Shown: positions 26,040-56,300, counted from the first letter of the stretch. The stretch is 64,000 bases of DNA from Sphagnum compactum (GCA_965153455.1 OZ234494.1:10106001-10170000), one strand, 5' to 3'. Notes: generated from the letters alone by a model not told the origin. Made by a program: numbers and translations.

Positions 26040-26835
26040 GGAATGAATATTTGTTGTTAGCCTGTAACCCCTCCCAAGAAAGGGAAAAAAAAACTTGCAA
26101 AGTGCAAAAGAGAAATAGTGCCTTTATGTTGAGATACTTACTTCTTCCATGAAGGTTTGGACTTTGGACAGATGAGCTTGACAGAAAAAGGAAGAAGTCA
26201 ACATGGGCACTAGTACCACCCATTTCTTTCTTTTCCTTCTCTTACTGATCTCACTGAAATTCCCAACATCTGCAACCTACCCATCATCAAAGTGTCATAA
26301 ACAAAACCAACAACAACTTGGAAAGAATGAAAAAAGGATGATGGTCTCTTCACAATGTGATACTTACTTTCCCAAATGAAGAAGGGTTTGGACAGAGAAA
26401 CCTCAAATGCTCCAAAGTTGTCAACATGGAGCACTACTACCACTAGCCATTCCCCTTCTTTGCCTCTCTCACTGCTGATCTTGTTAAAATTCCCAAAACC
26501 TTCCGATCTTCAAAAATTGTTATAACCCGAAAAACAAACAACAACTTGGAAAGAAAGAAAAAGGAGACTCTCTTCACAATGTGGTACTTCCTTTTTCCAA
26601 TGAAGAGTTTTTGGAGAAAGAAGCTCAAAAGCAAAGAATAGTTGTCAAGATGGGCTCGACTAGTACCCATTCCCTTTCTTTCCCTCTCTCACTGATCTAG
26701 CTGAAATTCCCAAAACCTTTCCATCACCAAATTATTGTAACCCGGAAAACAAACAGAGATTGGTCTCTTCACAATGTGATACTTCAACTTTCTCCACTGA
26801 AGCAGGGTTTGGACATAGAAGCTCAAAAGCAAAGA
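26040..26835. repeat. Tandem ~225-bp repeat (3-4 degenerate copies) directly upstream of TIM10
   Basis: CTAG...CCATT.C.TT.CTT...ACTGATCT...GAAATTCCCAA...TCTCTTCACAATGTG.TACTT...GGTTTGGA starts at ~26210, ~26443 and ~26660. Confidence 0.8.
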
Positions 26836-31605: not shown

Positions 31606-33840
31606 TGTTTGATGCCCTATCATGCTAGTCTATTAACCAAGATGTAGATGGGTTGAGTTGAAACCTATATTGCACTAACCAAAACTAAGACACAAGAGCT
31701 AGGTGGCATGGTGAGATTAACAAGGAAATGGTGCTAGGATGGCATGCCTATGCATTCTTGTGTATCTTAGCTATGGTAGTTTATGTCACTTCCCATCAAG
31801 ACCAGACATACCAAAGGACCCTAAATCTAATGAAGAGCCTGGTGGATCAAAGGATGTGCATGATGACATTAGAGTGTTAGAATATTTATGCATTACCTCA
31901 ACATGTTTGTCAAGGTTACTACCAAAGAGAGATATCAAATGCTACAACAAACCACAAGGTTTAGGTGGGAAGGTAACCATCTATTTTGAGTATGGGAGGA
32001 TGGAAAAGTGAAGATTGTGCTTCACCCTACACAATAACACATTTAGTATGGCATGAGTTCAAGCATTTTGGTGTTAGGTGCACCCATAGTTTATTACAAG
32101 GGTAAAATTGGTGGCAAGGAATGCACATGGATGTGCAACAATTGGTGACAAGATGCATGATATATGTGATAGAATGTAGGCCTCCTTCAATGCTCCTACT
32201 CCACAATTGCAACCTCTTCCCATCATGGGATAAAACTACCATTGAAGTTTGGATTTTGCAAGGCCATTGCCACTAACCATACACCACAATTGGTATGTGT
32301 TAATGATGGTGGAACATTTTCCAAATGGATTGAACTAATATTGTGCAATCGAACAAGTCTAGTGAAAAGGTTGTGTATTCCTTTTTAAATTGAATGTTTA
32401 GTTAGTTTAATGTGCTAGTTGAGGTCTTATTGACCAAGGTAGAGAATTTTAAGGCCTTGTGTGAGTAAGCCTTGATTGACCATCATACTATGTCCCATGA
32501 TCATTTGTAAGTAGGTGGTTTGGCCAAAAGAGTTGTGTAAATAATGAAAAGAAGTTTGCACAAATATGGCCTACAGAAGGGCTATTTGGGTGACTAATGC
32601 CTTCAATTGCTTTAATTGACCATGGGTTACAAGTTGAACAAACAAATGTCACTTGCTTCATTTTCACTATATTTTTTCCTATTTGGTTGTGAGCCAAATT
32701 TGCTTGCATCAATATGCTTAAAGGTTATGGTGACCAATCTCAAACTTAGATGATTTGAATGTTTGGATGTGTGCATGTGATGAAAGAGCAAAGTTGTTCA
32801 AAAAAGTCATACCAATGGCTTGTGAAAAGTTTGCTATGTTCAACATAGAGACACATTGAAGTATGCCATTATTCATGGAGGAAAGTATTAACCCCAAGTT
32901 TGATGGTATAATATAAGGGATTGTGTTTACCTATAACAAACAACACACTGTGATGTTGGATGTTATAACAAGATGTGTAATCTTAAGAATCAAAGAAATG
33001 TATATAATTGGTGTTCCAAGGGTTGGCACATGGGATGTTTAACACTGCTTTTGGAGAAAGTTCCCAATAGGGATGGTTATGCTTTCAACGTCTACACAAA
33101 TAAGCTTAGCCACTTGTAGCTAGATTTAAGCAACATGAATTGTGTCAAGAAACTTCAAATGTGATTAAAATTAGTCAAGGAATTAGGTGGATTACAACTA
33201 GGCAATTAATGATGGGGCTCACATTTGCACCCAAGTTATTTGATTCACTATTTCAAAATTACCAAGTGTCCACTTGTAATGTGCCCATAATGCAAAACTC
33301 CTAAATCTACATAAGATGTGTTATTTGGTTTAGGGACCTTATTCCCAAATAGAGGGCGATTGTTTGTGTGTGTGTGACCTTCATAATAATGTCATGACAT
33401 GTTTATGGTTTGTGACAACGATAGATGTAAACGCTTTGATGTGGTAGCACACAACAACTATTAGTATTATTTGGGAAATTGTTCAAATAGTTGGAACTTT
33501 ATTAAAATAAAAAATAGAAGAAATAGTTAAATAGCATGAGCATGTTTCACATATTTCAACTTTGGAATAGTACTCGAAGTTGTAATGGAAAAGACACATC
33601 TTTTTAAAGTTGCACCATCTTTTGTTTGTCGTGTTTTGTTTTGGAAATTTTATGAAGTTTTCTTGCTTCCAAGTTTATAGGTTGTTTATGCAAGTTTGGT
33701 GTGAGGTGTGGATTATCCCAAAGTGGAGTGTGTAAGATTTTGATTGTGTGTGCGTATGTGAATTTAATAATAATGTTACGACGTGTTTATGGTTTGTGAC
33801 AATGACAAATGTAAGCACCTCAATGTGGTAATACACAACA
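31606..33840 (+). mobile_element. Old, heavily decayed 3' part (integrase + PPT + B-A-B terminus) of a relative of the 43399-53380 element
   Basis: DNA is colinear with 50940-52400 (e.g. CATTTTGGTGTTAGG, TTCAATGCTCCTACTCCACAATTGC, TTGGATTTTGCAAGGCC, AAATGGATTGAACT). AGAGGGCGAT (33351-33360) is followed by direct repeats at 33361-33456 and 33745-33840. Confidence 0.8.
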
Positions 33841-40500: not shown

Positions 40501-42818
40501 ATAGTTGGAAAGTTCTCAACAAGGGCTAGAACTTTGCTTAAGACCTCACCTTAATCGAAGGTCTGCACAAGAAATTATGAACATCAAAAGATTTGGGAGT
40601 CTTAATTTTTGGAATTTCGGGACTCCCAATTTGCGAGTCCCATGACAAAATAACATTTGGGTGCAGCCCTCATGACTAATCACAAATAATACTATAAAAA
40701 GGGAGGTGGTGGCTTCCCCCAAGTCCGGGCCGTGGTGAGTCTTGTGAACCCACGTATGCTCATAGTTCATTTGTGCACCAAAAGTGTTCCAACTATGCAT
40801 TAACCAACTTGTTGTTTGGTTTGTGTAGGTTCGTGTGAATAGTTGACCCATTTGTCATTCGTTCTAGTCCCCATCCCGGAGCTTTAGCACGTCCTTATTA
40901 CCTTCGAAGTGCTACAAGCTAGGAAGTGTACCCCAATTATTTCTTCCATTGTTTTCACATTCGGATTCCCATTCCATTCTTTCAAGGAGTTTGGGGGTGT
41001 GTCATTTTTTTTAGTTGTAAATGATTTTTTAAAGTTGTGAATGCCACATGTAATTTCTACTAGTGTTTAATTGCCTTGGACAAGTTGCACAAAATTTTAG
41101 TTGCAAAAGATGTGATGGGGCACCTAATTGAAAAATTAATCACATCAAAGTATGTTTAACACCAACTTTTCATCCAGCCAACATGACATGGTCATGTTTA
41201 CAACTAAATTTTGTAATTTCATATGTTTATATGGCATAATCATTTGTGATTAGTTTTATAACTAAAATATGGCTTAAACATTTCAATTTTTTTACTGCTA
41301 AAATGTTGACACGTGACAAGTTCCAAATTGAAAAAATGGCATCATGTGTCCTGCTTAAATTAGCCTAAGTTAAACCACCTAACCTAAAAGCTTAGAGGCT
41401 AACCTAACATGGGTTAAGTAGGTTAACTAAATGCATTCAAGTAGGTTGCAAGTGTGAGGATTTGAACCTTCACCTTCACATTAAAAATCAAGATTTTAAT
41501 AATTACATCATTTTTTCAACAATTGATCATTTTTGTCATTACATCATTATGAACATTTTTTCTTATTCTATTTATGTGACATAACCTACATTTTCTAATT
41601 ATTTAATTACCTTCGACCACTGTAAATTATTATAAACTATTTAACCCTAAATCATTTTAAGTTATTTTTTACTATTCTATCTTAGGTTATTCTAGGTTAT
41701 TCTACCCTTAAGTTGTAGATTCTACCTTAAGCTATTCTTGGCTATTATTCTACAAACCTTGAAAAGGTTATTTCTATTTAACTCCAAATGGTGTGCAAAA
41801 CATATAAGGTGCAACTTATTGAAATATATATATAATTAATTTACTTAAATGTAAATAAGGTGCCTATAATTCATTATGAGGATATACTTAAAAATTATCT
41901 AATTCTTATTTTAAGATATACCTAAAATCTGTTCAAAATATGCCATTATTTCATAGCGAGCTAAAAAAATCCCTTTATTTCAAATGTTTTTAAAAATATA
42001 TAAGTGGTGATTTCTTCAAGCCTTGGGATATTTTAGGCTATTGTAGATTATTTGAATTTAAGTTATTTTAAGTTGTTCTACCTTAGGTTACTTAATTTGG
42101 GTATTTTACTTTAAGTTGCTCTTCATTATTTTTGGTTATTATAACCTAAGCTATTATTGATTATTTTAGGTTATTCTACTCTAGGTTATTCTAAGTTATT
42201 TTAAATTATTTTAAGTTATTATACTTTAAGTATCCTAGGACATCTATAAATATTTTAATATAATTTGCTTGAAGTTATTTTAGGTCATTCTACCTTAAGT
42301 TAATCTTGGTTATTTTACCTTGCATTATTTTAGGCTATTTAACCATAGTAAAAATGTCCATTCATAAAACTACATTATTGTAGTAGTGTGCTTAAACTAT
42401 TTAAGGTACATAATGGTGTACCTAAAGGTTACCCAAACTATTAAAGGTACATAGGGGCTACTTAGGTTGAAGCTAGTTGATGCATGCATTAACATATATA
42501 AATTTACATGTATATAGTCGTAATTCAAATTGCATTGAATGCCACATGTTCAATCACCTATAATTACATTATTAATCACAAAAATAATTAAATTTTCATT
42601 TGATGTTAAACACCATTAGTTGTAAATGATATGAATGCATGTTTCATCTTCATTTTCATCCAAATCACATGTAGTTGCAAATCATAATCACATGTGTGAC
42701 TACAAGTCGTTTTTACCATGGTGCCATGTAGGGTAATTGCATTGGTAGTCACAAAAATGGTTGATTTGGACACAAGTTGTAAATACATGGGTTGGTATGG
42801 ACATGATTCCTTGTAGTG
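37595..42818. mobile_element. Nested CACTA-like / AT-rich insertions splitting the old Gypsy copy
   Basis: CACTACAATGG at 37595 and 37873, and TAGTG ends at 42388 and 42818. The interior is AT-rich with short tandem TTATTCTACCTTAAG-like repeats (~41640-42350). No matching 3-bp TSD found, so boundaries are uncertain. Confidence 0.4.
40089..41004 (+). mobile_element. Solo LTR (TGTCAC...GTGTCA), same family as 46285-47104
   Basis: TG...CA ends. Reverse-complement similarity to 46285-47104 (e.g. GGTGGTGGCTTCCCCCAAGTCCGGGCCGTGGTGAGTC). Flanks ATTTT/TTTTT. Confidence 0.75.
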
Positions 42819-42849: not shown

Positions 42850-43200
42850 CATAATGCCCCATGTGATGGAAACATAATTTGGTGATTAGTATACTTGTCA
42901 TTATTTGATCTACTCTTTATGGGCATGCTAGAATTCACGATATTTGTCCATTGGCAACCCTTAATAGTGTTGGGAAAACCCCTTCCATGCCATGAAAGGT
43001 GTAAACATATGGGGATTGGAAATCTATTACATATCATAATAGGTATCAAACTTTTGGATGAAGTTGTTGAGTTTGATGGTGCCAATTGCATTAGAAAACC
43101 AACATGGCCCATTGGTGGTTCTAAACATTTCATCCCTATCCCATAATAATGGAATAACAATGCAGTCTAGCCAATCTTTCAGAATTGGATCTAAATTCCC
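42850..43200 (-). mobile_element. gag remnant of the old related Gypsy element, into which the young copy inserted
   Basis: Reverse strand GGCACCATCAAACTCAACAACTTCATCC...GATATG...GCATGGAAGGGG aligns to 44926-45030 (GGCACCATCAAGTTGGAGGACTTCATTC...GATATG...GCATGGAAGGGA). Confidence 0.8.
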
Positions 43201-43398
43201 TAAAAGATGTTGATGGCATCAATGGTCAAAATCACGCCCCTCAACTTGTATACCCAAATGTTGATGTTGTTTATGCTTGAAAAAAGCTCATGACACTTCT
43301 ATAATGGATGTTAAACTGGTAACATTAGGTGCCCCAAATGAATCTTGTATCTTGTTGTCCAAACCTTAATTCCTAAGCAATGTTGAACCTATGGGCTT

Positions 43399-43713
43399 TG
43401 TCATGACCATATGTGTGTTAGCTATAACATATAGTGTGCTATGGTAGCAAGTAGTGCCTACTTAGGGTTTTTAGGTTTAGGGCTAGAGGAAAGTGGCTCT
43501 TCTGGTAGGACCCACCCTCATGTTGTGAGTGGGGGTATAAAGTGTGAGAGAGGGCTCAGTTGAGCCTAAAGCGTTGGGAGTAATTGGAGTTAGTGGAGCT
43601 TTGAGCTATGGTGTCCCGTTAGCATTGGCTTAAATTCTCTAAGTGGAGTGGGCTTGGTTTGACTGTATGTGTTTACATCACGAGTTTTATGATAGTAGAT
43701 CTTTCTCGTGACA
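43399..43713 (+). repeat. Terminal repeat A1 (315 bp)
   Basis: Direct repeat of 52928-53260. TGTCATGA...TCGTGACA, TATAAA at 43536-43541. Lacks 18 nt present in A2. Confidence 0.95.
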
Positions 43714-43718
43714 TTTTC

Positions 43719-43739
43719 ACTCAAAAAACTATGTTTTTT
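43719..43739 (+). promoter_or_regulatory. Putative self-priming primer-binding site
   Basis: Starts 5 nt after A1 and does not begin with TGG. CAAAAAACTATGTTTTTT (43722-43739) is 17/18 complementary to A2 53087-53104, which lies just downstream of the TATA box. Confidence 0.7.
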
Positions 43740-44816
43740 GGGAGTAGTTAAACCGTGGGGGTTTTGTGATCTTGCTCTCTGGTTGTGTGGCCGAATTGGG
43801 AGTGGGTGGTGTCAAAAGGAGCGCCTTGGCGAGAGCTTTTCAACACACCAAAGAATGTTGGATTTTGTTCAGCGGATCAAAAGTTATGATCATTTGAAGT
43901 TGCTAGTTTAGGGTTTGACAGTTTTTAGTGACGGTTTACCAGCAACGTTAATTTCTCAGATAAGTAGAAATTTCCTTGAAAAAAATTGCTGAAAATTGGT
44001 AGGAGTGTAGCTAGAAAGTCGATCTACAATCTGACAAAGACAGATTGTGTTTTCATTGAACGGTTTATACGTTATGTTTGTTTTTGTGGTGATGTTTTTT
44101 TCTGGTTTGTGCACACCTAGTGCAGAAGCACTGTCGGATTTTTAGCTAAATAACTAGGGAAGATCATGTGCTGCAATTTTTTGAAGTTGTTGCTTGAGGG
44201 CTGAATTACATATGGGAATTGTTTGGGATTTTTTTGGTGGAGCCAATTGGGAGTATTGACCTTCGAAAGTTCTCAAGTTTGTGTAGATTTATGCCCAGGT
44301 TTTTTTCAGCAGTTTTTCATAGGTCATATCTCGGCATACAAACCTTTTTTTCAGTCGAGTTTTGGAGAGAAGGAAGATCTAGTTGTCCTTTACATTCTGG
44401 CCGAAGTAAATTGGCATTTGGTGTAGGAACGGTGGAGATATGGTTGTTTGAGTGCTCGCTGCCCAATTTCGCAACTTTTGGCTATGGCGGATTAAGGATT
44501 TCGCCGGAAATTGAGCTTTTGGCTAGTGGGGAGCACATTTTTTGACTTGTTGTGGTGGGCCGGTTGGACGAGTTGAGCCGCTACTCAGCTAGGTGGTTGA
44601 GTTGAGTATTCGTTTCTGGTAGCAAATCGGGCACGAGGTCGACGGTATTTAGTGGTGATTCAATTTGGGTACTGGGTTTGGTGATTGGGTCATCACGGAG
44701 CAGTTTGGTGGTCCTGTGAGGGACCATGGTGGAAATGGTGGAGTTACACGTAGTGGGTTGAGGTATTGACTACCTTCCCCCACATCATCGGTTGTTGAGG
44801 AGGACGAGGTTATCAT

Positions 44817-47552
44817 GAATAACAAGTTTTCCATATTACCGTCTAGTATTGCGGCCCCATTGATTTGGGATATGGACGGGGGTTCTGGGGCCATGAAGGG
44901 CCCCCGACGTTACTCAGGTGCAGTGGGCACCATCAAGTTGGAGGACTTCATTCACGAGTTTGATTATTGGTGTGATATGTAGATGTTACGTAACGCCAGA
45001 TTGTTCTCACCCTTCTTGGCATGGAAGGGATTGTTTCAGCACTTGGAGGGTCCTCCGATGGATGATTATCATGAGTTTCGGAGAGATCATGCTACTGAGA
45101 TTGAGGAGTGGAGGCAGCATTGGTCTCCATCCTATGTATCTATTACTCACGGTGGTGTTGTTAGTGATGGTATTACTACACCGTCTACTCCTAGTACGAG
45201 CACACATGTTATTCCCCCACCTCTATTTAACCCTATCACGGAGTTCTTTTTGAGGCTGAAGAAGAACTACCAGGCGGTGAAGACGGAAAAGTTGAAGAGT
45301 CTTCAGGAATTTGAGCGGAAGATTAATGAGAGTCTTCGCGAGGCATACACTCGTATGCGACGGTTGATTGCAGTTACCCAGGGGGTGACGGAGGCTCAGG
45401 CATTTCAATTTTGGTATGGATTCTAGATAAGGAGTTGCAACAGAGAGCACGTGATGTGACTCTCATGAGTGACGATTTTCCCACATCGGCCCATGTGTTT
45501 GCTTTGTCTGAGAAGATAGAGCTTAACATGGTGGAGGAGAGGGTGGTGACATCTGGATTCAATAGGGATATAGTTACTACTTCTCGTGGACAGCAGTCCA
45601 CCTCACAACCTCGTACTAGTGGAGGTGGGAGTCGTGGAGGTCAGGTACGACCTCAGTCAGGTTCTGGAGGGACGGGTGCACAAAGACCATTGCCTTCATT
45701 CGCTAGTCAACAGCAAGGACAGTCTTGTTGGACATGTGGTGGTGCTCATATTCGGAGGGATTGTCCACAGGAGAGTGGAGGACAGACTTTGGCTGATGGA
45801 TCTCAGTCGGCACAAGTTTAATGTGATAACTGTGGTCGGGTCAGCCACCCTCGTGAACGTTGTTTTGACCTTTACCCAAAATTGAGATTAGGTCGTGGTG
45901 GAGCGGCTCAAAGAGGTCGTGGTGGTAGAGGTGGTAGAGGTGGTGGGGGTGGTAGAGGTACACCAACACTTAGGGCACCTCCCATGATCACTCCTCACCC
46001 TACGACAGAGGCAGCTATGGCTGCTAGGATTGAGCAGTTGGAGCAAAGGCTTGCTACCATGGCAAGTTTCCAACATCGATCACATTCCAGAGGTGAGGTT
46101 CCCACATCTTATGGGGGAGATGATCTCTTTTATATGGCTAGTGTAGCACAAATTGAGGCATCCGTTGCAATGACGAGAGGCGTCACTCGAGCTCGGAGCC
46201 ACATGGGGCAATTGTGGGGTTGGATCCACAGAGGGGTGAAGCTGGTAGACAGGCTAGGCTTCCCCAATCATTCTTGTTGTCTGATGACGCGCTCCCCAAG
46301 TCCCTTGTTGAACCCACTTGAAGGTCCAACTACGTTGAGTTGCGGAAAGTTGGGACTTGAGGGCCGCTCCCGACTTCCAGCACTAAAGAGGGGTAGAGGG
46401 GCGTGCTAGAAGTCCCGGGATTAGACTAGGAAGAGGACAAGCTTTTCACCTACTCAAATCTACATCAAAACCAACCCCAAGTTGGTTAGAACTCATTCTG
46501 CACCCTTTTGGTGTTGGGACAAGCCACGGGTTAACTCGGACTCACTTGACTCACCACGGCCCGGACTCGGGGGAAGCCACCACCTTCCCCCATATAGTAT
46601 ATTCTGTGTCTCACCGCGGAGGCTACATCCGAATGGCTCTTTTTCCCGGGACTCCCAAGTTGGAGTCCCGAAACTGTCCCGGGTTGGAGTCCCGGAACTT
46701 TGGGAGCTCATATCTCCCGGCTTCGACCTCTGATTGGAGTGAGGTCTCAACCAAAGTTGTAGCTCTCCTCGAGAGCTCTTCAAAACCATGTTGCATTCCT
46801 TCAGGCAACGTCGGGAAAGGGTCGATTCCCGACTTTTAGTGGTCGGGAGTCAAACTGCCAGTTTGACTCCCGGCCCTTCTTTTGCCCATAACTTGGGCTG
46901 CAGATGTCCAAATGGCCAATGCGAGGGCATTTTAGACATTTACACTTCAAGACCTTTCCATTTATATAAAGAACACCTCAAGGCAAGGTGTTTTGACCCC
47001 TTGTAATCGCTTCTGAGTTTTCGGGAGTCCCGGAGGACTCCAACTTCCCACTTTTGGGAGTGTGGGCTTCACCCTCACACTTAGCCAGAAGTGGGGTTGC
47101 GACATTTGAAGTGGTTAGGACTCCTTCCATGGTTCCTACTCCGCCTATTGAGCCAACAGTGGGGCCAACAGCATCGACATCACATGTAGTGGACATTGAT
47201 GTATCATCGAGTGCATTGTCGCGGATGGTGACTTCAGTGTTGGGATCCCCAACATTTTCGGCTAATGATTTGATGGCGTCAGGAGTTGACTTAACTCGTG
47301 TATTTCGACTAGCAGCCACATTGTGTGAACCTGGGAGTGTTGTTGCTACAAGTGCCGAGGTGTGTGAGGGTGTTGATGTGGGGCAACTTGTGGCAGGGGA
47401 TGTTGTTGTGGAGCAATTCGTGGTATCAGGTGTGGATAGTCCTTGGCAGGCAGCGGCGATTAAGATGGATGCATTACAAGCTCGACCAGCCATCGATCGT
47501 GAGAGGCTTACACCTAGTGTATGTATGTTGGATAATCGGAGTGGTATTTTCT
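44817..47552 (+). pseudogene. gag region (two CCHC zinc knuckles, RGG-rich tract), interrupted by a solo LTR
   Basis: Capsid-like ...KLKSLQEFERKINESLREAYTRMRRL; CWTCGGAHIRRDC and CDNCGRVSHPRERC; RGRGGRGGRGGGG. In-frame stops and frameshifts. Confidence 0.85.
46285..47104 (-). mobile_element. Nested solo LTR with 5-bp TSD
   Basis: Minus strand TGTCGCAACC...GCGCGTCA. Flanks TCTGA (46280-46284) and TTTGA (47105-47109). Removing it restores the host frame ...PQSFLLS-EVVRTPSM.... Confidence 0.9.
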
Positions 47553-47554
47553 AG

Positions 47555-47878
47555 TTGGTGAGTCCTACGGGCCAGGTGTATAGACCAGATCGGGTTTTGT
47601 TGGATTCTGGTGCCCAACCCTTGATGTTGGGGAAGGCAGCATGTATTGGTTTGGGTATTCGGAGGTCAGAGCTTGAGCCGTGCCCATTCCAAATTCAGAC
47701 ATCACTTGGTGGAACCAGTGATAGGTCTAACTTCATGACACGTGAGAGATTGTTGGTGCAAATGAAACCGAATCATGTGACAGATAGCTCTAGGTTGGGA
47801 GTGACTGTTATTGTTACAGCAGCTGAGTCGTATGATGTACTAGTTGGAGGTGTCGTGTTGTATCCGATGGGTTTCTAG
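47555..47878 (+). pseudogene. Retroviral-type aspartic protease domain
   Basis: VLLDSGAQPLMLG active-site motif and YDVLVG C-terminal motif. Confidence 0.9.
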
Positions 47879-48329
47879 ATGGATTATTGGACAGAGACAA
47901 CGACTTATCGACCTGGTTGGCAGTCTGGGGATGGACGGATGAGCCACGTGCCTGTGAGATTTATTTCTGGGGTTCGACCAGGAGGGTCTCCCCCAGAGGT
48001 GTTCGCATCAGTTGCTGGTTTTAGTGGAATGGTCACTTGGCCAGGTGACTTGTTGGAGGGCAACATTTCAGCCATTGACACTTCGGTCTACGAGGATATA
48101 GAGGAGGTTTCTAGCTTTGTTGCAGCAGTGTCCTCCTCATTGGATGTTCCACTTTGGCGTTTGAGTGGGGTGTTACGGCAGGATGCCGATTGTTTGGTAT
48201 CACAGGCTTGGCGTGAGGCTTTTGTGCCTGTGGAGGAGGAGGAGGTTCCACAACGGACTCCTATTTTTCGTCCTGTTGGGTTGTCTCCATTGGATACTAC
48301 ACCCATTGCGTGGGAATATCCTTCCGAAG

Positions 48330-49265
48330 GTATTTGCGTGTTGGATCTATTTGGTGGGATCAGCACTGGTTTGGCAGCAGTGCTTCAAGTGGGTATTCTA
48401 GTTTGGAAGTACTTTTACGTGGAGAAAGATGAGACCGCGAGGAGGGTTTCATCGCTCCATCTTGCATTATTGATGCGGCGATATCCTGAGTTGTTGCCGA
48501 GGTCGGCTATTTGAGGATATCAGCGAGCTTTGCCATCAAACATTGCATTGTTTGGGGCGCAAGACTTTGCGAGAGTTGGTCCTATTAATTTGGTGATTGC
48601 TGGATGGCCATGCCAGGGTCATATTTGGGCTGGTCGTGGTGAGGGATTACGTGACCCTCTCGTATGTTTTGGGAGATGTTGCGGGTGTTACATCATCTTC
48701 AAACACATCAGGCACGTGTTCCCGCGTACATTCTGGAGAATGTACCTTTGTTGGGTGATTCTAGGTCTCATGTGATGGCAAGTGTACACCAAATCTGGTC
48801 TTGGATTGGACCAACGGTTTTATTGGATGCAACGAGGGTTGGCTCACGTGCTCATCGTCCCCGATTGTGGTGGACGAACTTGTTGTCGAGGGAGGTGTTG
48901 AAACGGGCATATGAGACAGTACCACGATCTTCTCAACTCATAGTGGATAGTATCTTAGATATTGGGCGATGTTCTCAGGTGGTGAAAGTTGTTGATAGGT
49001 CACCCATGGCAGTGGTGAATTGAGTGGGACAGCCTAGGATGGCGTTACCCACATTTGTCAATTTTCCAGCATCACATGCCTATAGAGAGGGTGGTCCTGG
49101 GCTTGTATGGGATAGTTCTTTGCAGTAATTGGTGGAGCCCAACGTCAATGAGAGAGAGTGTGCAATGGGTTTCTTACAGGAGTGACATTTGTCCCTTTTA
49201 TTTCCGAGGCTTCACGTCAACACGTGTTGGGTCAAGCTATGGACCTGAATTGTTTGACTTGGATT
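48330..49265 (+). pseudogene. C5 cytosine DNA methyltransferase domain, DNMT3-like, embedded in pol
   Basis: Motif I VLDLFGGI, II YVEKD, IV IAGWPCQG (catalytic Cys), VI YILENV, VIII LDATRVGSRAHRPRLWWTNL, IX ERECAMGF and X RQHVLGQAM, in canonical order. A few stops and two frameshifts. Confidence 0.92.
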
Positions 49266-49569
49266 GTTAGCCTTGGTATGGCTGAGCAGCGTCGGCTCAG
49301 AGCCACATTTGTAGTAGTTACACCTCTTGTGAGCTCGCTGTCCACCGTGACGGTAGAAGCATCGACTGGGGGCGAGAAAAGTTGTACATTTCATCCTTGG
49401 AGTACATGGGATGTGTTGGGAGAGCATGTGAAGGTTGTGGCCCATGCTGTTGGAGGAGTTTGTTGCTCCATTGGTGTTCCATTGGGTGACTTGGAGGAGT
49501 GTGTGGCTTTTCCCAAGGTTTTTGCATAGCAACCCATGGCGTCGTCCTCTTCCTCTAGTGTGTCTATCG

Positions 49570-50960
49570 AGGAGACTTGGGAGCCTTTGATGGGGCCCAA
49601 GCTAATAGGAGGAGAAAGGCGACGGTTGATGCAATTCCTAAGAGCTTACAGGAGTTGTTTTGCCTTTAGTATGAAGGAGTTGGGTGCTTTGATTGGACTT
49701 GGTATACGGATTGAGTTGGCTAGTGACACGCCAATCTTCCGTTGTCCTTATAGATATAGTGATATGGAGAGGGACCTGATTCGGAGTCAGACGTTGGATC
49801 TATTAGAGGCTAGATTAGTGGAGTTGTCGCATGGTGAGTATGCATCAGCCACTGTCATGCCTGCCAAAAAGGATGTACATGGCAACTATTCAGATAGGCG
49901 GATGTGTGGAGACTACCGTCCTATCAATTGGCAGACTAAGTTCGATAAGTATGCCATGCCTACACCTGAAAAGATCTTGATGTGTGGGACATGCGAAGGT
50001 TTTTAGTACACTTGATCTTCGAGCAGGGTACCATCAGTTGCCGATTTGAGAGGAGGACAACGCCAAGACCGCATTTTGGGGCATCAACTCTCACGGCAAG
50101 GATTGTTTGTATCAGTGGAAGTTCTTACCCTTTGGGTTGAAGAACGCGCCTGCCGAGTTTCAACGTGTGATGGATAGGATCTTAGCAGGGTTGGATTTTG
50201 TCCGGTGTTATATCGATGATATTGTGGTATATAGTGATATCGTGGAAGAGCACCAAATTCATCTACAAATTGTGTTTGAGCGGTTGAAGGCTCATGGTCT
50301 TCGTTTACATCCTGGGAAGTGTAAGTTTTTCCAGGAGAGTGTGGAGTATCTGGGTCATGTGATCTACACAGGTGGTTTGGGAATGCAACAAGCCAAGGTG
50401 GAGGCTATTGCACGTATTCCGCGTCCCACGGATGTGAGTAGGGTTCGTGCTTTCATGGGATTGACGAACTACTATCGCAGGTATGTCAAAGGCTTTAGTG
50501 CGATGGCAAAGCCTTTGAACATGTTGAAGTTGGATCAGGAGTGGCAGTGGGGTGATGAGCAGGAGCGAGCTTTTGTGGAGCTCAAGACTAGGTTAGTTGC
50601 AGCTCCCATCTTGAGGAGACCTATTAAGGGGCGTCCATTCCAGCTACACATTGATTGGAGTATGTTGGGACTTGGAGCGGTGTTGACACAGTGTGATGAT
50701 GAAGGGAAGGAGTTTGTGGTGGCCTATGCGAGTCGTTCGAACAATGCAGTGGAGTCACGCTATAGTTCTTACGAGGGAGAGTGTTTGGCAGCGGTGTGGG
50801 CTGTTGCACACTTCAGGTGTTACTTGTTTGGCACACAGTTTACCCTTGTCACTGATCACTAGCCGCTCAAGTGGTTGATGGAGTTCGATAAATTTACAGG
50901 AAAGCTTGCACGGTGGGCTCTCATCTTACAGGAGTATGACTTCCAGGTGGTGCATAAACC
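49570..50960 (+). pseudogene. Reverse transcriptase and RNase H
   Basis: RMCGDYRPIN, LPFGLKNAPAEFQR, YIDDIVVYS, KCKFF, LHIDWS, YSSYEGECLA, TDH, WALILQEYDF. Confidence 0.97.
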
Positions 50961-51399
50961 TGGAGTTACAAACCTCGATGCCAATGGATTGAATCGAAAC
51001 CCATGCACTAGCCAAGAGGATAATACTGGACTAGATGGCATGGCGAGGTTGATGAGGAGATGGTGCCAGGTTGGCATGCATCGGCCTTTTTGTGCTTGTT
51101 GGGTGTGGACTCTAGTATGGAGGGCCACGTGACATCTTACTCTAGTCAAAGGGTAGATGGCCAGTCTTCAGATCCTGAGGTTGGGGATGGTAGCATCGGT
51201 CACCATGATGTTCATGATGATACATTAGTGTTGGAGTTTTTACGAACCAGTATGGTGTCAGGCATGGTGAGTGCTAAGGAAAGAGACCGTGTTCTCCAAC
51301 GAGCTAAGAGGTATCGGTTGGAGGGGACACATATACTCCGAGTGTGGGAGGATGGTAAGGTACGGATTGTACCACATCCAGACCAGAGAAGGCGTATTG

Positions 51400-52655
51400 T
51401 GCGGCATGCCCATGAGGAGTTGGGTCATTTTGGAGTAAAGCGGACATATAGTTTACTCCTAGGTCAGTATTGGTGGCGTGGTATACACACCGATGTGCAA
51501 TGATTAGTGTCACATTGCATGGTTTGTGATAGGGTGAGGGCATCGTTCAATACCCCTACACCACAGTTACACCCCTTGCCTATTATGGGGTTGGGTTATC
51601 GCTGGAGTTTGGACTTTGCGGGACCATTACCATTGACGGTATGGCACAACAAATATGTGTTGGTGATGGTGGAGCACTTCTTTAAGTGGATTGAATTGGT
51701 GCCATCCCCTGACAAATCCAGCGAGGGAGTAGCGTATGCATTCCTTAATAGGGTGTTTAGTCATTTTGGTGCACCAGCTGAAGTGTTGACCGATCAAGGT
51801 ACGGAGTTTCAGGGTGAGTTTCAGGTCTTGTGTGACAAGGCGTTGATTGATCACCGAACCACGTCTCGAGATCATCCAGAGGCAGATGGTTTAGCTGAGC
51901 GTGTGGTACAAACGGTGAAGAGGGCATTGCGCAAATATGGCTTACAGAAAGGCCACCTAGGGGATTGGGATATTCAGTCACCATGGTTGGCCATGGGATA
52001 TCGATTCAGTCGTCAGGCATCCTTGGCTTCCTTCTCACCTTATTTTCTATTGTACGGCCCAGATCTAGACTTGCCAACAACGATTCGTCGTGAGTCTAGT
52101 GAGGTGGTGAACCTTGATGACCCGGAGATGTGGTTGAGGGTGTGTTCTCAACGTGAGCTCTTTCGAAGAGTTATGCCAGTAGCGTTTGAAAACCTTGCCA
52201 TTGTTCAACACAGGGATACATTGCGATATGCGATTATCCGGGGTGGAGGTTATCGACCATTGATTCGTAGGTTCCATGTGGGGGACTATGTCTATTTGCA
52301 GCAGACTGCACCAACGACATTGGATGTAATGGCAGGCCGCACTATCTTACGAGTGGGAGAGGTGTTAGCTTCTGGAGTTCTCATGTTGGAGGGTCGTGAT
52401 GGTGTTGTTTGGAAGGACCATGTGCGTAATTATGCGCCATGTCACCTCCCAAATGTGGATGGTATAGTTGACCCAAGTTTGGCAATGGTACGGGCCGGCT
52501 TGAGGTGTATGTTATGTGGGTCTAAAGGTGGAGCAGCCCATATGTTGGTGTGTGATAAATGTTCTAGGGGTTGGCACATGGCGTGCATGACTCCACCTAT
52601 GGATGTTGTTCCCGTTGGACGGTGGATTTGTCCTCGTTGTACTTTGGAGGGGTAG
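51400..52655 (+). pseudogene. DDE integrase with C-terminal PHD finger
   Basis: HHCC (HEELGHFG...CMVC), D (LDFAGP), D (TDQG), E (GLAERVV). C4HC3 PHD CMLC...CDKC...WHMAC...WICPRC at ~52506-52640. Confidence 0.95.
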
Positions 52656-52805
52656 ATGACTTGATCTTCACATGGTATGGATTGCAGATGGGCGACTAAC
52701 GATGGGGCAACATAGCACCCGGCCTTTTGATTTGTGCACCCGCGAAGGTGTATAGCATGTAGAAGATGTATAAGGCTACCTGGAAGTTAGAGGGACCTAA
52801 CCACC

Positions 52806-52821
52806 AGCTAGGGGGGCGAGT
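52806..52821 (+). promoter_or_regulatory. Polypurine tract
   Basis: AGCTAGGGGGGCGAGT immediately precedes the TG of repeat B1. Confidence 0.8.
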
Positions 52822-53380
52822 TGTGGTACACATGTATTTGTGTATGTTCTCGTCCATGTTATGTGTTTGTGTGTGTATGTGAGTATGGTATGTCAGCGAT
52901 GTATGTTGTATGTATTCACACGACAGCTGTCATGACCATATGTGTGTTAGCTATAACATATTGTGTGTTATGGTAGCGAACAGTGCCTACTTAGGGTTTC
53001 TAGGTTTAGGGTTAGAGGAGAGTGGCTCTTCTAGTAGGACCCACCCTCATGTTGTGAGTGGGGGTATAAAGTGTGTGAGAGGGCTCAAAAAACATAGTTC
53101 TTTGAATTGAGCTTAGAGCGTTGGGAGTAGTTGGAGTTAGTGGAGCTTCGAGCTATGGTGTCCCGTTAGCATCGGCCTAGATTCTCTGAGTGGAGTGGGC
53201 TTGGCTTGACTGTATGTGTTTGCATCACGAGTTTTATGATAGTAGATCTTTCTTGTGACATTTTCAGTTGTGGTACACATGTATTTGTGTATGCTCTCGT
53301 CCATGTTATGTGTTTGTGTGTGTATGTGAGTATGGTATGTCAGTGATGTATGTTGTATGACGATATGTATTCGCACGACA
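52822..53380 (+). repeat. 3' terminal repeat block: B1 (52822-52925), GC, A2 (52928-53260), TTTTCAGT, B2 (53269-53380)
   Basis: B1 and B2 are near-identical (TGTGGTACACATG...CACGACA; B2 has 8 extra nt). A2 matches A1. Confidence 0.95.
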
Positions 53381-56300
53381 GCTTAACCTAACCTTAATTC
53401 TAAAGCACCTACACCCATTAAGAACATTCCACATGTTCAAACAAAAGTGGGATTCATTATGAACATAACAATTATGGTCTATTGGCCATCAACCTAATTC
53501 CACCATCACAATAATCAATGGAACACTTTGGTGATCAAATCCAGGAATGTCCACAATAGTCCCAAAATAGATTACAACCTAACCCTTCCCACTAATTCCC
53601 AACCTTGTTTTTGCATTCTTAAGGTTTTGTGCTTTAATGAAGAAAATGCACAAGTTGAACTTGTTTGGTTAACCCAAATGTGGTATTGTTTGGGTTCACA
53701 CATTTGTTACAAGATTACAAGGTATATAACACAAGATTTAAAACTTGGGTCCCACACACTCATTATAGAATTACAAGTGCCAACTAAACCATATGTTCCC
53801 CACACCTATACCTTCACAAATGTGTCAACAAACAAGGTGGAAAATAGATGTTCCCCAATTATAACACACAAGTGGGAATGAAATTTTTCATACCTCATGA
53901 ATTCTTAGTTTTGTAATTCATGTTTGAAAATTACAACAAAACACTTAAATAGAACATCAAAAGTCAACAACATGACATTCCATGGGTGTTAATGATGCAA
54001 CATTCTACCACTTGTGGGTTACAATTATTGATGTTTATTGACATCAACATTAAATTGCCCAAAAACTGGTTTCACATACACCATTGCCCCATGTTAGTGA
54101 AAAAACCCTTAGAAATTTTCCTATTTGAATGGGCTAAACCTCCCACATGTGTAGGATGGCCTACAAATAGAAACTTGGGCATGAATTCAAAACTTGTTGA
54201 CATGATGTGGTTCACATTCAAATACAATAACACATTGTTGTGTGTTATATGCTATTGGCCCACTTGAATGAAAATTTGAATTGAACAATGGCACACCTTT
54301 TTTAAGTCTAAAATCCAATTTTCAAAATTAAAAATTGAAATTTAATTCAATTTCCAAAGACCAAATCTATTTTAAAATCAACGTTTTTCATACCTTAAGA
54401 ATAATCATTATGAAATCACCTCCATAAAACCTTCGTCATTGAAGGTTTTCCAACAATATGAAGAACATGCCTCAATCTATTTAAATTTTTTAATTTCAAT
54501 ATATCGAATTTTCAATGAAAACATTGTTCAATATTCAATATTCCTATATTATAGGTCTAAACAGTATGCAACCATATTGGTGCACCTCTCCTCATTGAGG
54601 GCTTTTCAGTTGGTATCAAGAGTGAGATGGGGGCTACCGTGGTTTGGGAAATTTCAATGTGACAAAAAAAGAAAAAACAAACAAACAAACAAACAACCGT
54701 CCTTGATAAATAGATGCCAAATTTTCACATGATCATGTAAGTGAGAAAAAAATCAAGCTTCTAAATCATTAAGATGGGGCATTAATGTTTGTGTGTGTAA
54801 CCTATAGACACACTTCATTCTTATTTTTATGAAAAGACAAATGTTTTTGGGAATGCACCTTTTCATATATGAGTTATGAAGTAAAACTTTGGGATATGAA
54901 TAATGTCGCCCTTAGGATATATAGTGATGTTCCTGGATTGCACAAGAACATAAGGGGGGCATCACTATTTATTTATCATTGAAAAAAAATGAAATTGTTT
55001 CAATTGTTGCTAAAAGGAGTTTAGGAATCTAACATCCAAAATCTCTTACCTATGAGTGATGTTTCACATTTTTCTATCAAACATTACATTATTTTTAAAG
55101 TGAAATTATGCAATTTCAAATATAATTTTTCAAAATTTCATCATATGAAGAATAACTTTGCAAAGTACACTTTTTGTTATGTATTTGTAATAATAACCCA
55201 ATGGTTTGGACAATAAATAGTTTTTCACAAGTTGGGAGTTCAATTTTCAATAATTTTGACAAAGAATAATATCTATTTTGTCCAACTAGACCTTTTATGA
55301 ATTATTTTGTGCCAAACATTAATTGTAGTTACAATAGCCCACCTAATTGTGCACTCACCCAATGTAAACTTTTTTTATGCAATGATTTTTCAAATCATGG
55401 TGTTGTTGGGAAAATATATTAGGTGCACATTTTGGATACATGTTGCCACCCTTCATTCTTGAGTAGAATTGTTACACCATTTTTTACCTAACCTTTTACA
55501 ATGCATTTTGATTGAATAATATAGACTTAAATGGTTTTACATTTACATGTCCCGTACTAAACACTTACACTTATACTTACATGGATGTAGATGGCCCTTG
55601 TACACTTCCATGGAGTGCAAGTCCTAAACCATATACACACACAACATTGAAAACTACATCTATGAATGAAAAGAACATCATCCACATTTAACTATCTATA
55701 GAGGTGGCTAAATTGCAATGGCCATGCCAACTGTATCTTGAGAGTGTCCAAATTTTGGAAGCTTATATGTTGGGAATGTCCAAAGTGTTGAACCATTTTT
55801 TTTGTGATGGGAAAATCAACAAGGCCCGTCACAAAAAAAAAAGAGAAAAAAGCGAAGGCATGCACAACTAATCAAGAGAAACCAAAAGGTATCACTAATA
55901 CCATATTGGGACCCCACATTCAACCTTGCAGTTCTGTAATGTGTGATTTTGGGAGATGAAATGGAGTCTTTTGAACAATTATTCAAATTGAATTTATTGG
56001 ATTCAGCAAGTGACCTATTTCCAAACGCTTCCAAACTATCCTCTTCAATGAATTATGTGACTCAGCACCCACCACTGAAAACTTGTTATATTCCACGTTG
56101 GTAACCTATCTTGCAAACCCTCTCGCTTCCACCTCACACTACCAAGGTAATTACTTCTATAAGTGGGTAAGTATCCGAGGTAAGTGAGTCCCAAATGCAA
56201 ATGAGTACTATGGAGATAGGTAAGTAAGTAGGCAAGGCACATGGTGGCGACTAGGTACATAGATACTAGATCCATGGGGATGGTAAGGGCATAGGTAACC

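Follow-up and report, generated by a model that had tools for sequence, protein, structure and literature searches.

Split direct repeats in a Sphagnum Ty3/Gypsy retrotransposon family with integration ends inside the long terminal repeat: a candidate route through end-joined cDNA

Anatomy and coding content of the element

The retrotransposon described here lies in a 64,000-nt stretch of the Sphagnum compactum genome (GCA_965153455.1 OZ234494.1:10106001-10170000; hereafter the window, with positions counted from its first letter), in which an earlier note, made from the sequence alone, had pointed to a Gypsy element with direct repeats split as A...B-A-B. That layout was confirmed by the repeat boundaries, by a contig carrying the empty site, and by its recurrence in independent metagenome contigs. 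The whole element (43399-53380) starts with TGTCATG, ends with CACGACA, and reads A1, primer-binding site (PBS), internal region (int), polypurine tract (PPT), B1, GC, A2, B2. The target-site duplication GCTT flanks it at 43395-43398 on the left and 53381-53384 on the right, as judged from the boundary letters (GCTT/TGTCATG at 43395-43405 and CACGACA/GCTT at 53374-53384) and from the empty-site contig, which holds one GCTT. A1 (43399-43719, plus strand) starts with TGTCATG, contains a TATA box, and ends with TTTTCA; the earlier note had its start right, and its end, given as 43713, was corrected to 43719. The PBS-like 10-mer CTCAAAAAAC (43720-43729, plus strand; boundary TTTTCA/CTCAAAAAAC at 43719/43720) is complementary to a predicted RNA start within A and reads CTCAAAGAAC in most other copies of the family. 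At the other end, the PPT AGGGGGGCGA (52810-52819, plus strand), which is conserved in the family loci, stands immediately 5' of B1 (52820-52925, plus strand), with the boundary AGGGGGGCGA/GTTGTGG at 52819/52820 and the B1 terminus CACGACA. B1 meets A2 (52928-53266, plus strand) in a palindromic boundary, CACGACA-GC-TGTCATG (ACAGCTGT, 52919-52934), whose halves are the sequences at the outer ends of the element. A2 carries TATAAAG (53065-53071) and the hairpin CTCAAAAAAC-ATA-GTTCTTTGAA (53084-53106), with the predicted RNA start near 53097; 18 nt of this hairpin, retained in A2, are gone from A1 at about position 43557. B2 (53267-53380, plus strand) abuts A2 as TTTTCA/GTTGTGG at 53266/53267 and ends with CACGACA. 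The A copies are 93-94% identical in ungapped blocks, 88% over 339 columns when the 18-nt indel is included, and 93% over the aligned columns, and the B copies are 98% identical over 94 nt plus an 8-nt indel, or 97% over the aligned columns.

The two full long terminal repeats (LTRs) by which a Ty3/Gypsy element is recognized are therefore not found at the ends, because the left end consists of A alone and the right end of B-A-B or, in other copies, of B. On the basis of the PBS and PPT positions, the LTR is B+A, and integration ends at the B/A boundary, as had been proposed. The opposite reading, in which the LTR is A+B and thus the unit that the integrase defines, was ruled out since A2 lacks a preceding PPT and A1 lacks a following B. 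Public sequencing runs were used to examine the insertion, and the contigs of four runs were aligned to window positions 42900-53900. A 1,789-nt contig from run X8 matches 42900-43395, continues with one letter, and then matches 53383-53868; it spans the unoccupied site, where GCTT is present just once. The flanks in this contig are approximately 94% identical to those in the window, so that the empty site is either orthologous or paralogous. Element 43399-53380 is a one-piece insertion. Outside the duplication, both flanks contain a 21-nt direct repeat (43359-43379 and 53387-53407, 86% identical), which indicates that the insertion target was locally repetitive DNA, and AT-rich arrays of TTATTTTAGG-like units with a 10-nt period lie just upstream of the element (41618-42355).

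The coding region is interrupted by numerous in-frame stop codons and frameshifts. No intact open reading frame (ORF) was found in the 8 elements examined. A1/A2 identities of 91-94% mark the copies of the family as old, and the window element is likewise an ancient, dead member of this Gypsy-type family of plants. All recognizable coding features are on the plus strand. A gag region with two CCHC zinc knuckles (45747-45863) and a protease-like stretch with an LLDSGAQ motif (47555-47878) were identified by eye and have no Pfam match. The Pfam scan covered 17 of the 26 ORFs of at least 90 amino acids, including two on the minus strand, and located a reverse transcriptase (RVT_1, 50089-50364, 5e-25), an RNase H (RT_RNaseH_2, 50548-50859, 2.4e-31), the H2C2 zinc domain of the integrase (51378-51500, 9.5e-12), the rve DDE core of the integrase (51597-51878, 1e-11; an in-frame stop lies between the H2C2 domain and the core), and a PHD finger at the integrase C-terminus (52506-52640, PF00628, 4.5e-10). 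The order RVT_1, RT_RNaseH, Integrase_H2C2, rve on the plus strand is that of a Ty3/Gypsy pol. Between the protease-like stretch and the reverse transcriptase is a fragment of a DNMT3-like cytosine methyltransferase domain (48655-49020) that is 87% identical to residues 260-378 of ORF L053:6382-7782. That ORF matched the catalytic domain of DNMT3A (E=4e-8) and, below the cut-off, PF00145 (E=0.0019); several full-length relatives list PF00145. Pfam found no methyltransferase in the window fragments, and a PDB search with 48655-49020 gave no match, so the DNMT3-like assignment in the window depends on the better-kept copy L053 alone.

No tyrosine recombinase (PF00589) was detected in the 17 scanned ORFs of the window or in the precomputed domains of 240 listed relatives, in keeping with the earlier description of a DDE integrase unaccompanied by a recombinase. 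The layout of the repeats, and nothing else, would favor a true DIRS/PAT-type element that is moved by a tyrosine recombinase and carries the integrase as a passenger; given that the recombinase domain is missing from the scanned ORFs and from the domain lists of the relatives, and that 4-bp duplications and TG...CA ends mark a DDE integrase, we consider this explanation very improbable.

Close relatives of the integrase-PHD ORF occur in Marchantia polymorpha, Calypogeia fissa, and Sphagnum fallax, those of Marchantia and Calypogeia being the nearest from named organisms, and Klebsormidium nitens proteins are 50-53% identical to it. Long integrase-PHD polyproteins (P0123, P0151, P0186, P0190, and others), several with PF00145, were also seen in the chlorophytes Haematococcus, Pleodorina, Tetrabaena, and Chromochloris and in many environmental contigs. 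Judged from these sequences, the integrase-PHD clade is much wider than Klebsormidium and the bryophytes. When viral contigs were compared with the integrase-PHD alignment, the two matches in giant-virus contigs were to the PHD finger only and are irrelevant to the family.

Recurrence of the permuted ends across the family

Metagenome contigs were scanned for relatives, which yielded 80 loci with a total length of 674 kb, and in each of them A, B, and the outermost 300-380 nt on either side of the internal region were placed by BLASTN. The resulting 56 right-end rows and 13 left-end rows were merged by eye where they shared the same 20-nt flank; right-end rows were excluded when the contig stopped in or at B (L015, L076), when B was truncated (L051/52/56, L066), or when the internal part was present alone (L045, L047). 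Right ends of the form PPT-B-NN-A-B were obtained for 16 insertions, 15 with a complete terminus of the CA(C/T)(G/A)ACA type and one truncated. PPT-B was followed directly by unrelated flank in 18 insertions, one of them with a mutated terminus, and two insertions had a third, snap-back form that is described below. All 10 left ends (9 complete) read flank/TGTCATG, one of them as TATCATG, and neither B nor A was present within 60 nt upstream of A1 at any of them. The conventional form BA-int-BA, which had been predicted to be rare, was thus absent among these 10 left ends. Both ends were known for seven insertions, of which six have perfect 4-bp duplications (GCTT, TCTC, TACA, AAGG, ACTA, and CATA) and one matches in three of four positions; the termini and the 4-bp duplication that had been noted at one locus therefore hold family-wide. 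Three more divergent relatives on short contigs (L074, L077, and L078) showed no B-A-B in the approximately 900 nt 3' of the integrase, which is uninformative either way. Right flanks of three insertions (L037/L073, L063, and L067) start with AA(G/A)TCAAT, and this may reflect either a shared target repeat or a target preference.

A further copy of the arrangement lies in the window itself. A divergent, 5'-truncated relative at 32064-33840 contains an integrase fragment (32064-32872, approximately 66% DNA identity) and a right end of the form PPT-B' (33358-33456)-AC-A' (33459-33741)-B' (33742-33840), in which the two B' copies are 81% identical. It represents the same permuted architecture in another family. 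A repeat at 26163-26718 with the same 447-nt spacing was also considered and was rejected as an unrelated tandem repeat with a unit of approximately 225 nt (26.1-26.8 kb). The possibility that an ordinary two-LTR Gypsy element was rearranged once at this locus, or was misassembled there, was the prior expectation and has nothing else in its favor; the earlier note had named it as the case that would overturn its reading. The empty site, the 16 independent insertions in independent metagenome assemblies, and the duplications refute it, and we assign it practically no weight.

The distribution of the right-end classes was examined on a tree of 36 insertions. The tree is nearly a star, with 22 of 33 inner branches open, and the B-A-B, B-only, and snap-back forms are intermixed, requiring 12 class changes. 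In the single well-supported young clade, 7 of 14 insertions are B-only; elsewhere in the tree, 11 of 20 are. The similar share among young and older copies argues, weakly, that the B-only form is made at or near integration and not by slow decay, and the sequences thus suggest such an origin for these copies. One could propose instead that the integrase yields A-int-B alone, by cutting both palindromes of a linear molecule or by opening a 1-LTR circle, and that B-A-B goes back to one ancestral rearrangement that has been copied faithfully since. In agreement with this proposal, A-int-B is as common as A-int-B-A-B (18 versus 16 insertions) and is associated with perfect duplications (L006 and L044, among the seven insertions with both ends known). 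An A-int-B copy, however, lacks the 3' R and cannot be a source copy, B2 is not transmissible by standard reverse transcription, the two classes are mixed throughout the tree, and B-A-B is found in a second, divergent family. We regard an origin of B-A-B by a single ancestral rearrangement as improbable.

Several side observations concern the A copies and the abundance of the family. In one insertion (L050 = L069), an internal deletion extends from approximately 190 nt before the PPT to A2 position 160, beside the hairpin; the PPT, B1, and the U3 portion of A2 are lost, and what remains reads internal-A(3' half)-B/flank. The hairpin at the predicted RNA start has been deleted, with different boundaries each time, from A1 of the window element, L004, L006, and L044 and from A2 of L018. 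Deletion is seemingly more common in A1 than in A2 (the shorter A copies of L071/L072 lie outside this comparison) and may reflect palindrome instability or a property of the 5' A copy. A third to a half of the sampled words of the element were present in 20 of 24 listed runs (9 studies, several coded organisms). In the four aligned runs, the summed contig depth was hundreds to thousands for the element and tens to a few hundred for its flanks, from which the family is highly repeated. The element itself is interrupted at 46282-47106 by a nested 825-bp insertion of an unrelated, very-high-copy repeat that does not belong to the family; the uninterrupted joint 46281->47107 was present in all four runs, and the summed contig depth of the repeat was approximately 100 times that of the Gypsy family in each. 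This repeat carries repeated GGAGTCCCGG-like motifs, and a sequence similar to it forms the left flank of the L039 insertion.

The A2/B2 joint, probable self-priming, and a proposed route to integration

In 15 of the 16 B-A-B insertions, the A2/B2 joint reads TTTTCA (TTTTTA in one of them) followed by G/ATTGTGG; in the remaining one, L004 = L010, a slipped duplication of 19 nt lies at this point. The joint consists of the last base of A before the PBS and the first base of B after the PPT. It thus unites the end of A beside the PBS with the start of B beside the PPT, a joint of a U5 end to a U3 start, and, as far as genomic copies can tell, it is the signature of cDNA (complementary DNA) ends joined head to tail. 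The B/A boundary has a different character. Its halves form an imperfect 7-bp inverted repeat, the same sequences stand at the outer ends beside the duplications, and the ends of reverse transcription (GTTGTGG.../...TTTTCA) share no such inverted repeat. No alignment column separates the B1 copies from the B2 copies of 14 elements, as is expected if both are remade in each cycle from one template.

Two positions near these boundaries vary among loci. The B/A center (window positions 52926-52927) is GC, AC, AT, or GT, and B2 starts with G or A at 53267, with G>A or C>T changes at both sites in about half of the copies; the corresponding G at the B1 start, in a GAG context, is altered in 1 of 16. 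The CAG/CTG contexts of the two hot sites suggest decay driven by CHG methylation. When the G/A state of the joint was mapped on the near-star tree to distinguish inherited from remade joints, the change was G>A in a CAG context, and recurrent transitions account for both sites.

The sequence that follows A1 does not resemble a tRNA-type binding site and lacks TGG. Within A, the hairpin CTCAAAGAAC-ATA-GTTCTTTGAG stands 32 nt after TATAAAG, and an RNA starting at GTTCTTTGAG would be complementary, over its first 10-11 nt, to the final base of A together with the 10-mer after A1. In minimum-energy folds, the predicted RNA formed 11 pairs with the 10-mer of L008/L038 (two contigs of one insertion), 9 with that of L039, and 8 with that of L053; for L059, in which the 10-mer is mutated, the fold contained 0 pairs with the predicted RNA start. 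The family thus probably primes its own reverse transcription, in the manner of Tf1, from a PBS just 3' of A and with the predicted RNA start. Two independent insertions with different flanks (L025 = L027 and L054) bear on the same point. They run from the end of A through CTCAAAGAAC, TAT, and GTTCTTTGAG into the reverse complement of A from position 1 to approximately 160 and stop at CATGACA/flank. Such a structure would result if a plus strand ending in the 10-mer folded back onto the start of R in A, extended itself, and was cut at the first palindrome half-site. Read in this way, the snap-back insertions show that plus strands end in the 10-mer and that the integrase uses the half-site wherever it is located.

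These observations lead us to propose the following route. Reverse transcription would be self-primed at the PBS just 3' of A and would use the PPT just 5' of B, giving BA-int-BA. The integrase would then cut the palindrome ..CACGACA GC TGTCATG.. at the B/A boundary, inside the B+A LTR, and genomic copies would accordingly be circular permutations of BA-int-BA, either A-int-B or A-int-B-A-B. For A-int-B-A-B, the two cDNA ends would have to be joined before the integrase acts, through a 2-LTR circle or through an end-to-end template switch of the plus strand; A-int-B would come from a 1-LTR circle or from the cutting of both palindromes of the linear form. A 3' copy of R is retained in A-int-B-A-B alone, and hence only this form could seed new copies. 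We consider it likely that this is a green-lineage Ty3/Gypsy family, organized as gag-protease-DNMT3-like-reverse transcriptase-RNase H-integrase-PHD, in which the ends made by the DDE integrase differ from those of reverse transcription and in which permuted forms of BA-int-BA are inserted, A-int-B-A-B after the joining of cDNA ends.

Several points weigh against this proposal. It is a model read from genomic copies that are old and dead. With its two identical palindromes, a 2-LTR circle should yield A-B-A-int-B as often as A-int-B-A-B, and yet the former is absent at all 9 complete left ends, an outcome with a chance of approximately 0.003 at equal frequencies by our own arithmetic. The circle route set out in the earlier note therefore stands in that it gives A-int-B-A-B with exactly the observed joint, but its symmetric cut does not predict what was found; among the forms that the note expected, A-int-B-A-B and A-int-B occur and A-B-A-int-B does not. 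In addition, 15 precise joints out of 16 are tidier than usual cellular end-joining and would also fit a joint that is inherited through RNA. A-int-B could form after insertion by B1 x B2 recombination, and the complementarity of the 10-mer is suggestive and no proof of priming, since the 10-mer is also a direct repeat inside A, as part of the hairpin. The missing form has three open explanations: A-B-A might collapse quickly by recombination between its 340-bp A copies; more speculatively, the plus strand might run off the end of the minus strand onto the other end, so that one palindrome is interrupted and one cut suffices; or the joint might be inherited through RNA, as proposed for PAT/Ngaro elements.

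The last of these amounts to a different mode of replication, in which an RNA running from A1 into B2 serves as template, the A2/B2 joint is inherited without a ligated circle, and A-int-B-A-B alone is made. The outer ends would be regenerated by copying the internal B1 and A2, and the integrase would just trim at the CA of the palindrome. Templated replication of this kind accounts both for the lack of A-B-A-int-B, seen at 0 of 9 left ends, and for the high uniformity of the joint (15 of 16), the layout is the A1-B1-A2-B2 of PAT/Ngaro elements (as presented in PMC4157794), and de Mendoza et al. 2018 term the repeats of a comparable algal element DIRS-type (Fig. 4c legend, PMC5890265). Against it, the joint matches base for base the end of A beside the PBS and the start of B beside the PPT, for which a templated model offers no reason, and B1 and B2 copies have no fixed differences. 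By our reasoning, B2 would never be copied in standard strand transfers when the PBS follows A1 and R lies within A. Plus strands with their end at the PBS are also seen in the snap-back insertions. We consider templated replication unlikely and favor the joining of cDNA ends before integration.

Significance and comparison with known systems

LTR retrotransposons of the textbook type integrate the linear product of reverse transcription, and the edges of their LTRs are the edges of integration. In the family described here, the ends made by the integrase lie inside the LTR across dozens of independent insertions, and the exact U5/U3 joint in half of the copies would be a record of prior joining of cDNA ends. 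The question raised is whether cDNA that is circular or end-joined can be what a DDE integrase normally acts on, and why just one site of an identical pair is opened. If the proposed route is obligatory across the clade, it would be a natural version of the abandoned model in which the circle is the integration precursor of retroviruses; with a DDE integrase, it would parallel the split repeats of elements that use a tyrosine recombinase, and it would mark a stage on the way to circular pararetrovirus genomes. The answer, for a clade that has a DNA methyltransferase and a PHD finger and extends from green algae to mosses, bears on the possible origin of both split-repeat retroelements and pararetroviruses. 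That a widespread green-lineage Gypsy clade with integrase-PHD, and often DNMT3, obligatorily uses end-joined cDNA opened by its DDE integrase at an intra-LTR palindrome is a broader claim, which we advance tentatively and with some leaning towards doubt. On the practical side, programs that search for LTR elements on the expectation of two full LTRs will annotate split-repeat Gypsy elements wrongly.

The nearest described system is KnitGypsy-Dnmt3 of Klebsormidium nitens, for which the Fig. 4c legend of de Mendoza et al. 2018 (Nat Commun 9:1341, PMC5890265) gives the repeats of a DIRS element (A-coding-B-A-B) together with Gypsy domains. The view that no such Gypsy lineage had been described was therefore too strong: a Gypsy element with split repeats has already been published, and the mechanism, as far as that text is available, has not. 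According to the same paper, the family is transcribed in K. nitens. The window family shares with KnitGypsy-Dnmt3 the combination of Gypsy pol, a Dnmt3-type methyltransferase, and A-coding-B-A-B, and it differs in having a bryophyte host and in that all copies are dead. At an integrase-PHD identity of 50-53%, common descent with the K. nitens elements is possible; the matched proteins may not be those of KnitGypsy-Dnmt3 itself. The available text of PMC5890265 takes the acquisition to be particular to the lineage of K. nitens and contains neither the termini, the duplications, the PBS and PPT, the palindromic site, nor the exact U5/U3 joint, and it likewise lacks the likely self-priming, the three right-end classes, the missing mirror form, and the presence in bryophytes. 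In the literature searched, the name KnitGypsy appeared in no other paper, and no paper was found on a Marchantia Gypsy LTR retrotransposon with integrase and PHD; for split direct repeats together with an integrase, the entries returned, as far as their text was available, were papers on recombinase elements and virophages and reviews only.

Elements of the PAT, Ngaro, and DIRS types are not known to make a target-site duplication on insertion, and DIRS elements often carry a methyltransferase domain. The window family resembles them in its split direct repeats, A1-B1-A2-B2, the arrangement set out for PAT/Ngaro elements in PMC4157794. Those elements encode a tyrosine recombinase, whereas the window family has a DDE integrase, TG..CA ends, and 4-bp duplications, a length within the 4 or 5 bp stated for plant Gypsy elements in PMC6317226. 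With respect to priming, the likeness is to Tf1/Tj1, in which the RNA of the element is complementary at its 5' end to its own PBS and reverse transcription is self-primed (as outlined in PMC4600332), and to the plant Tcn1 clade, for which the same arrangement is predicted in PMC6317226. Here, too, the PBS directly follows the 5' repeat and is complementary to the first 10-11 nt of the predicted RNA. Tf1, Tj1, and Tcn1 differ in possessing two full LTRs and integrating linear ends, and in the window family the RNA start is a predicted one. Finally, the integrases of foamy virus and HIV-1 cleave palindromic LTR-LTR junctions, according to the portions of PMC1180852, PMC1905944, and PMC4372172 available, so that in both settings a DDE integrase would cut an internal palindrome of two end sequences to produce integration-competent ends. 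In those retroviruses, the palindrome is the circle junction and its cleavage a side route; in the window family, the palindrome lies inside the LTR, the joint is retained, and cleavage at the palindrome is apparently the sole route.

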